In this document: piece after piece, positions 9,061 through 10,305 of the stretch | How positions within the stretch are numbered: position 1 is the first letter of the stretch | Layout of the letters: each line of letters opens with the position of its first letter | Origin: Escherichia coli | Lineage (GTDB): Bacteria > Pseudomonadota > Gammaproteobacteria > Enterobacterales > Enterobacteriaceae | Direction: 5' to 3' (one strand) | NCBI RefSeq assembly: GCF_029227855.1 | Contig: NZ_CP074356.1 | Length of the DNA: 64,000 bases | Position numbers and translations under genes: made by a program | Notes under the pieces: generated by a model | The model's input: the letters and a program-made list of their open reading frames with translations, nothing else | The model's database searches: none | What the model was told of the DNA's origin: nothing

Positions 9061-10305
9061 GTTGTGGTCAACTAAAACTGGCCTCCGCGTTAGAGTTTTT
9101 CCAGTATCGGTTTTCTGATTCGTTTGGTGGTAACCCACCATTATATTCGTGCGGTCTTAGTGCGCTGTAATATCCAACGATATAGTCCGTTATTGCGTGA
9201 GCTGCATCGCTGAAGCTTACATAGCCCGTCGCTGGCACCCATTAGTTCTTCAGACTCCTGAAGAAGCGCTCCATTGGGCTGTTATCCCAGCAGTTTCCAC
9301 GCCGGCTCATACTCTGTCTGATCTGGTATCGCCACAGTAACTGCCGGAACTGCCTGCTCGTATAATGACTGCCTTGATCGCTTGGAACATCACCCCGACG
9401 GGCTTACCACGGGTTTCCCATGCCATTTCCAGTGCTTTCATGGTAAGCCTGCTGTCCGGCGAGAACGAGATGGCCCAGCCCACTGGTTTTCTTGCGAACA
9501 GGTCGAGAACAACGGCGAGGTACGCCCAGCGCTTACCCGTCCAGATATAGGTCACATCACCGCACCACACCTGATTTGGTTCCGTTACGGCGAACTGTCG
9601 CTCAAGATGATTCGGGATAGCAACGTGCTCATGACCGCCACGCTTATACCGGTGAGTCGGCTGCTGGCAACTGACCAGCCCCAGCTCTTTCATGAGTCTG
9701 CCAGCAAGCCAGCGCCCCATCTGGTAGCCTCTCTGGGTTGCCATTGTGGCGATGCTTCTTGCTCCGGCAGAGCCGTGGCTGATGCCATGCAGTTCAAGTA
9801 CCTGGCTGCGTAATACAGCCCGTCTGCCGTCTGGTTTTTCAGGACGGTTTTTCCAGTATTTGTAGCTGCTGCGATGGACCCCGAACACATGGCAGAGAGT
9901 GGCCACAGGATAACGCGCCCTGAGTTTCCCGATTATCGAAAACTGTTCAGGGAGTCTGACATCAAGAGCGCGGTAGCCTTTTTAATATTTCATTTTCCAT
10001 TTCAATACGTTGTAGCTTTTTCCTGAGCTCACGGATTTCAATTTGTTCCGGGGTAATGGGGGAGGCTTTTGGTGTTTTTCCCTGCCGCTCATCACGTAAT
10101 TGTTTCACCCATCGCGTCATTGTGGAAAGGCCGACATCCATAGCGCTGGCTGCATCTGCCACGGTGTATTTCTGGTCAACGACCAGTTGAGCGGATTCGC
10201 GTTTAAACTCTGCGCTGAAATTTCTTTTTTCATTATGGCACCTGTGTTGTTCTGAGGTGAGCATATCACCTCTGTTCAGGTAGCTAAATTTAGTGTGCCA
10301 CCTCA
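9061..10305 (-). mobile_element. IS911-like (IS3 family) insertion sequence, degenerate copy
   Basis: Terminal repeat tgaggtggcacactaaatttagctacctgaacagaggtgatatgc at the high-coordinate end; orfA and orfB homologous to IS911 InsN/InsO; ends approximate within about 5 bp. Confidence 0.8.
9065..9906 (-). pseudogene. IS911-family transposase orfB (InsO-like), disrupted by an in-frame stop and a frameshift
   Basis: ORF 9307-9906 matches the orfB N-terminal two-thirds; the C-terminal segment ([68 protein letters not shown]) is in another frame and contains a TAA stop. Confidence 0.7.

Follow-up and report, generated by a model that had tools for sequence, protein, structure and literature searches.

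An IS911-type insertion sequence (IS) lies in this Escherichia coli chromosome between the fecIRABCDE and the shf-capU-virK-msbB2 modules, in an island associated with the leuX tRNA. The question it raises is whether this copy can still produce a transposase and, if not, what role is left to it at such a place. The window analysed here comprises 64,000 nucleotides (contig NZ_CP074356.1), and all positions refer to it. A preliminary description, made from the letters alone, had called the stretch from 9061 to 10305 an IS911-like copy with several independent inactivating lesions. We consider it very probable that we are dealing with a defunct, vertically inherited copy of the IS911 type, which carries four blocking mutations and serves as passive homology at the junction of fec and the shf module. 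It is an ordinary, multiply inactivated pseudogene of the IS911 family; in RefSeq, the same sequence already bears the label 'IS3 family transposase; frameshifted; internal stop'.

The copy displays the homology of IS3-family transposases, i.e., helix-turn-helix (HTH), leucine zipper and DDE/rve parts, inverted repeats (IRs) with TG...CA and a length within 1.2-1.5 kb; pieces of a typical orfA/orfB pair are spread over all three frames of the minus strand. When the lesions are repaired, the OrfAB translation scores 381.7 bits with the NCBIfam model for IS3 transposases, NF033516 (cut-off 160), and 54.8 and 109.3 bits with the Pfam profiles HTH_Tnp_1 and rve, respectively. The unrepaired fragments still match HTH_Tnp_1 and, in part, rve. 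A slippery heptamer with orfB at -1 is missing, and no start codon leads without a break to a complete DDE transposase; the first Asp stands in another frame than the second Asp and the Glu. The copy is a member of the family by descent that has lost the frameshift feature, not a working one. Within the IS, the Rfam scan at gathering thresholds found no family and the consensus promoter scan no sigma-70-like site.

On the minus strand, the left end begins with TGAGGTGGCAC... at 10305 and the right end closes with ...GACCACAACA at 9060, and both have retained the TG...CA tips. The preliminary description had thus placed the end at 10305 correctly, but its start was one base short of the right tip. 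The two IRs are complementary at 21 of 36 positions, as compared to 24-25 of 36 in reference copies; each of them differs by four substitutions from the nearest reference IR.

The choice of the reference matters, because the copy of BL21(DE3), annotated as 'IS911 family, programmed frameshift', has the same contracted slippery run, A5G; it was rejected as an intact reference for this reason. Megablast against 5,426 complete genomes of E. coli yielded three relevant groups of copies. Those of the first (100-99.6% identical) occupy the same chromosomal site as the present copy. The second (~96.8%, exemplified by L002) is labelled 'ISEc52 family' by PGAP, and the third (~92.8%), the BL21(DE3) type, 'IS911 family'. 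Overall, the dead copy is 96.7% identical to the L002 type and 92.9% to the BL21 type. In place of BL21(DE3), copies with A6G were used as references: L002, L008 (CFSAN027343), L014 (p89_MLI108-3) and L011, an outgroup of 88% identity from O157 plasmids.

By the convention of ISfinder, isoforms share roughly 95% or more of their DNA sequence. IS911 is the member of the IS3 family that was studied by the Toulouse groups. The L002-type copy measures 1,250 bp, encodes an OrfA of 100 and an OrfAB of 382 residues and contains the published IRR (36/36) and O5 (25/25) oligonucleotides of IS911 exactly. These features match the protein lengths and oligonucleotide sequences given for IS911 (PMC2909936), and the earlier label 'IS911-like' is therefore a fair name for the present copy. 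The organisation is the same as in IS911 and the L002 type: 36-bp IRs with TG...CA, orfA with HTH and leucine zipper, orfB with DDE/rve. The transposase of the L002 type differs from the repaired one by five residues and the C-terminal tail. Laboratory constructs for IS911 frameshifting have been described with a Shine-Dalgarno-like GGAG, whereas the present copy and the L002 type both read GGAA. What distinguishes the present copy from these relatives is a start run of A6 instead of A7, A5G in place of A AAA AAG, the loss of one C and a TAA codon (Table 1).

Table 1. Positions of the IS911-type copy, its lesions and its neighbours in the window
Feature	Position	Strand	Remarks
fecIRABCDE	~400-8170		
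85-aa ORF	8728-8985		between fec and the dead IS
Whole defective IS911-family (IS3 family) element	9060-10305	-	1,246 bp; from alignment with L002-type (1,250 bp), BL21-type (1,248 bp) and other copies
IRR, + strand reading TGTTGTGGTCAACTAAAACTGGCCTCCGCGTTAGAG	9060-9095	-	31-32/36 identity with reference IRRs
orfB fragment 3 (WVPATGY...)	9068-9241	-	C-terminal end of the transposase frame
Nonsense TAA for GAA (Glu332 of repaired OrfAB)	9242-9244	-	nine codons past the catalytic Glu
orfB fragment 2 (SDQGSHY...)	9242-9382	-	second Asp and Glu of the DDE triad; ends at TAA
1-nt C deletion, TTCCA^AGCGATC	9382-9383	-	just before the HSDQGS motif with the second catalytic Asp
orfB fragment 1 (KGYRALDV...WCGDVTY...GVMF and out-of-frame tail QAIKAV...DRV, stop)	9307-9981	-	first catalytic Asp only
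orfA body, putative 100-aa ORF from upstream ATG (10264-10262)	9962-10264	-	Pfam HTH_Tnp_1, 52.1 bits
Frameshift-site remnant TTAAAAAGG, A5G	9977-9985	-	A5 at 9983-9979; A AAA AAG in functional relatives
Native orfA ATG (10233-10231) with contracted A6 (10230-10225)	10225-10233	-	A7 in relatives
IRL, TGAGGTGGCACACTAAATTTAGCTACCTGAACAGAG	10270-10305	-	32/36 as in BL21-type IRL; 29/36 as in L002-type IRL
shf, capU, virK, lpxM/msbB2	10471-14347		beyond the dead IS
Second IS3-family gene, 379-aa uninterrupted ORF	14528-15667	+	RefSeq: intact CDS
tRNA-Leu	26233-26314		after other island genes, before core genes

The first lesion follows directly upon the start codon of orfA. Every intact or near-intact relative examined (L002, L003, L005, L006 and L011) has A7 there; here one A is missing, as had been suspected, and the native ATG is off the frame of the orfA body. 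It opens a junk ORF of 38 residues (MKKEISAQ...FPQ) that ends at 10117. The exact 64-nt context with A6 occurs in 422 E. coli records, including that of the EAEC strain 55989.

The same deletion brings an upstream ATG, preceded by GAGGTGAT, into the frame of the orfA body, which is open from the IRL to 9962. An OrfA-like DNA-binding protein of 100 residues, with the HTH and most of the leucine zipper, might thus have been retained and might damp the transposition of intact IS911-family elements in trans. A regulatory role of OrfA in IS911 transposition has been described (PMC2909936), and the HTH_Tnp_1 domain of the ORF is intact (52 bits). However, the upstream ATG is predicted to lie in the loop of a hairpin (GAGGTGA/TCACCTC) that would sequester its Shine-Dalgarno-like sequence, the native OrfA tail of 15 residues is replaced by RLPRS through the deletion in the slippery run, and IS30 has disrupted a plasmid relative that shares the start-run deletion. 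Nor does the ORF show a signal of selection: orfA differs from its intact relatives by just 1-2 substitutions, and the ORF is still open because it has scarcely diverged from them. A domesticated regulator of this kind appears quite improbable. The hairpin as such, a perfect 7-bp GAGGTGA-TATGC-TCACCTC at 10252-10272 of the minus strand, marks the inner edge of the IRL and encloses both the upstream ATG and the Shine-Dalgarno-like sequence. It is kept in all IS911-family copies examined except those of pETEC_74 and p89_MLI108-3, which have one substitution each in the 3' arm.

To return to the defunct copy, its second lesion affects the frameshift site between orfA and orfB. L002, L008, L011 and L014 have A6G at the slippery run; the present copy has A5G and is indeed, as had been noticed, one A shorter than A AAA AAG. 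In consequence, the frame of orfB is shifted by +1 against the orfA body here, by -1 in L002. Fusion of orfA and orfB requires the insertion of a base, not a deletion (PMC2909936), and the contraction therefore abolishes OrfAB instead of fusing the frames. A -1 slip at A5G would merely regenerate the OrfA tail. The reservation that the reference might have the same run lengths was justified in part: the BL21 type shares the slippery A5G, but the L002 type has A6G, and the start run is A7 in both. When the region 3' of the slippery site was folded as single sequences, the z-scores (-0.4 and -0.8) allowed no useful comparison of this copy with the reference.

With A7G, orfA and orfB would form one frame and yield a constitutive transposase. 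The only A7G was found in LD93-1 (20 matches; L012, NZ_CP047662.1 1282095-1283265), in a copy flanked by the 4-bp repeat GCAT. It was rejected as a hyperactive fused-frame variant in view of the many other frameshifts in that copy, and is probably noise of long-read assembly.

The contraction to A5G is not private to the present copy. It is common to about 1,000 other records, those of the BL21/K-12 type included. Counting the variants by a band of >=99% identity (54-56-nt queries) was contaminated by ~1,200 partial alignments of 100% and was replaced by sampling of 60 evenly spaced ranked rows. The exact A5G context was seen in 17 of 60 rows (3,849 records) and the exact A6G context in 15 of 60 (4,324 records), which corresponds to an estimated ~1,050-1,100 and ~1,030-1,100 E. 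coli records, respectively; like all population counts here, these are records, not independent events. A5G is thus about as common as A6G. At least two orfA haplotypes bear it, since the copies of BL21(DE3), EC130 and K-12 carry it on another one than the present copy. None of the 17 sampled A5G copies resides on a plasmid, and nearly all are the single match of their record; the sampled A6G copies are found on plasmids in 5 of 15 cases and are often multi-copy (A5G versus A6G, Fisher P = 0.015). The chromosomal, single-match pattern is what one expects of immobile A5G copies. Whether the loss of one A from A6G is a recurrent and favoured route to chromosomal fixation of IS911-family copies in E. 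coli appears rather doubtful to us: the contraction may have arisen once per haplotype or many times, or may have been spread by gene conversion. If many independent contractions were the case, the frameshift signal would be the mutational weak point of the element, and annotation pipelines would mislabel dead A5G copies as 'programmed frameshift'.

An annotation problem exists in any event. The BL21(DE3) copy (L003, NC_012892.2 4417448-4418615) has its contracted A5G at about 616-640 of L003, with orfB at +1, and is labelled by PGAP as 'IS3-like element IS911 family transposase, programmed frameshift'. Because A5G puts orfB at +1, the annotated protein cannot result from the canonical -1 event; such copies are tagged 'programmed frameshift' yet need a +1, not a -1, shift. 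At least ~600 records appear to carry the A5G copy of the BL21(DE3) type.

The surroundings of the slippery run offer another peculiarity. IS30 is inserted at the identical nucleotide, 6 nt past the run (between ...AAGGCTAC and TGTAGATTC...), in K-12 (L006, ~1450-1460), p89_MLI108-3 (L014, ~3280-3290) and Z226-6 (L007, ~2990-3003). The carriers differ in orfA haplotype and in run length, A5G in K-12 and A6G on the plasmid p89_MLI108-3, so that either length is found beside the same insertion point. This common site is either one old event that was reshuffled by recombination or a hot spot of IS30.

The remaining two lesions hit orfB. Positions 9387-9376 read TTCCA-AGCGATC, as compared to TTCCACAGCGATC in the relatives, and the missing C belongs to the FH-SDQGS motif. 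The frameshift that had been suspected ahead of the C-terminal third of OrfB is this loss of one C between 9383 and 9382. Its exact context recurs in ~1,749 E. coli records, including K-12. The rve match of fragment 1 is partial, covering profile positions 2-65 of 102. The in-frame stop in place of a Glu codon had also been read correctly: TAA stands at 9244-9242 (...SLKN-stop-WVPATG...) where all other copies examined have GAA. It recurs in exact context in 364 E. coli records and is absent from the copy of CEA106S, which occupies the same site and is otherwise 99.6% identical. The A5 at 9100-9096 was considered as a third contracted A-run and rejected; the outgroup on O157 plasmids and the BL21 type also have A5, and the A6 of L002 at this place is therefore the derived state. 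Across the right end runs an ORF of 137 residues (8728-9141, minus strand), which starts with an ATG at 9141 inside the IS, crosses the IRR and enters, without a change of frame, the annotated hypothetical protein of 85 residues. It is probably fortuitous.

The inactivation may then be pictured as follows. With A7 shortened to A6, translation from the native ATG ends after 38 junk codons. The change from A6G to A5G destroys the A AAA AAG heptamer and leaves orfB at +1 from orfA. The loss of C before the second catalytic Asp splits the DDE triad between two frames, and the exchange of GAA for TAA ends the transposase frame shortly behind the catalytic Glu. The two changes in A-runs look like the products expected from replication slippage at the longest homopolymers. 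The lesions accumulated stepwise, as is shown by the intermediates, relatives with subsets of them (CEA106S, EC130, K-12, pETEC_74 and p89_MLI108-3). Judged by its sequence, the present copy can no longer give rise to any transposase and would now serve as passive homology only. An intact relative might still mobilise it in trans, because the IRs keep their TG...CA tips.

Could a transposase nevertheless be made by unconventional decoding, be it transcriptional slippage on the A-runs or ribosomal frameshifting by +1 or -2? A-runs are prone to slippage of polymerases and ribosomes alike, and the tag 'programmed frameshift' that PGAP gave to the A5G copy of the BL21 type could be understood in this sense. 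However, even with both A-runs corrected in the RNA, the C deletion and the TAA would persist; the slip by -1 restores the OrfA tail only, and the sampled A5G copies are, unlike those with A6G, chromosomal and nearly always single in their record. Such decoding is hardly credible. Single-base errors in homopolymers are frequent in long-read assemblies, and the A7G copy of LD93-1 looks like one, but that the element is in fact intact and its homopolymer lesions are errors of this kind, as the preliminary description had considered, is practically out of the question, for the 1,245 nt recur with 100% identity in at least 40 complete genomes, produced by unrelated projects in many laboratories and years, E. 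coli 55989 among them, the start-run A6 is equally exact in its 422 records, and of the four lesions neither the C deletion nor the TAA lies in a homopolymer. With 560 records at least 99% identical to the element, sequencing error is excluded because of this identity across hundreds of independent assemblies.

How did the dead copy acquire its lesions? The ancestral sequence has just two homopolymers that reach 6 nt (together 13 of ~1,249 nt), and each of them was hit by one of the three 1-nt deletions (P = 3.2e-4 under uniform placement), which fits slipped-strand mutation. The idea of a slipped-strand decay of the dead IS thus accounts for both A-run losses but not for the C deletion, which is not in a homopolymer. 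The lesions arose separately, because relatives carry subsets of them; in this respect the preliminary description has been borne out.

These relatives deserve a closer look. On the ETEC plasmid pETEC_74 (E24377A) and on the IncF plasmid p89_MLI108-3, the shf-IRL junction and the variant IRL are identical to those of the present copy. pETEC_74, however, has kept A7, with just ~100 nt of the IS left. p89_MLI108-3 shares the start-run A6 and the 85-aa ORF at the far side but differs by its intact A6G, by a split through IS30 and by an orfB arm that has neither the C deletion nor the TAA. In CEA106S, where the copy occupies the same chromosomal site, the three deletions are all present, but the codon is GAA. 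The copies of the BL21(DE3)/K-12 type (L003, L005 of EC130 and L006) resemble the present one in the slippery A5G; they differ in overall identity (92.9%), in their A7 start run, in the lack of the TAA and in left neighbours from the nanX-nanY-ythA side, and in K-12, IS30 splits the copy as well. What K-12 and EC130 share with the present copy is the C-deleted right arm together with the right-hand flank; their left arm is of the BL21 type and has A7.

For the left arm, these comparisons give the order variant IRL, then A7 to A6 at the start run, then A6G to A5G at the slippery run. The TAA is the youngest lesion, and the C deletion belongs to an older fec-proximal arm that is common to K-12. 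Since recombination has made a mosaic of the copy, the lesions of one arm cannot be ranked in time against those of the other, nor can an order of 'decay after death' be given for the element as a whole. The differences from the L002 type comprise 22 synonymous and 7 non-synonymous nucleotide changes; this predominance of synonymous changes implies that most of the divergence predates inactivation.

The mosaic character leads to the question of how the element came to stand between its neighbours. Its flanks (...AACCT-IS-GACTA...) show no target duplication of 3-4 bp (CCT versus GAC), which fits later recombination at the element. The LD93-1 copy, apparently a transposed one, is by contrast bordered by GCAT on both sides. 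The fec-proximal (right) junction and the right arm are constant across EC130, CFSAN027343, K-12 and the present copy (9060-10305), while the left neighbours vary: nanX-nanY-ythA in K-12, EC130 and BL21, P4-like genes in CFSAN027343 and shf here. The point within the IS at which one haplotype switches to the other differs from strain to strain. Many plasmids have an identical shf-IRL junction, and the variant IRL recurs on ETEC and IncF plasmids. Because of the mosaic sequence, the missing target duplication and the varied left neighbours, we infer that it was probably homologous recombination between copies of the IS911 family, not transposition, that joined a plasmid-derived shf module to fec. 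A comparison of EC130, CFSAN027343 and K-12 with the present copy shows the dead IS acting as a hub of recombination. An accumulation of IS elements and rearrangements is a known trait of the fec region (PMC9249621).

Some observations on the island may be added. Here, shf (polysaccharide deacetylase), capU, virK and lpxM/msbB2 are chromosomal, and the shf-IS junction recurs at the plasmid loci L013 and L014. The cluster is usually described on virulence plasmids of Shigella and EAEC. In the second IS3-family gene, which is presumably IS600-like (N-terminus MSRKTQRYSKEFKAEAV...), orfA and orfB appear fused and the usual frameshift window is missing (...ERDILNCTGVAEKY...). Rfam further reports an ALIL frameshifting pseudoknot of another IS3-family element at 21685-21801 (+, 120 bits) and, also in the island, a match to the catalytic domain of a group II intron at 24328-24414 (+, 64.9 bits).

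Taken alone, the copy is of limited importance: a textbook example of the death of a mobile element, unchanged in hundreds of strains and flagged as a pseudogene by RefSeq beforehand. Its TAA (364 records) and its start-run A6 (422 records), however, are stable markers of the chromosomal lineage that has shf-capU-virK-msbB2 next to fec, and dead IS copies still shape the structure of the genome as homology for recombination.
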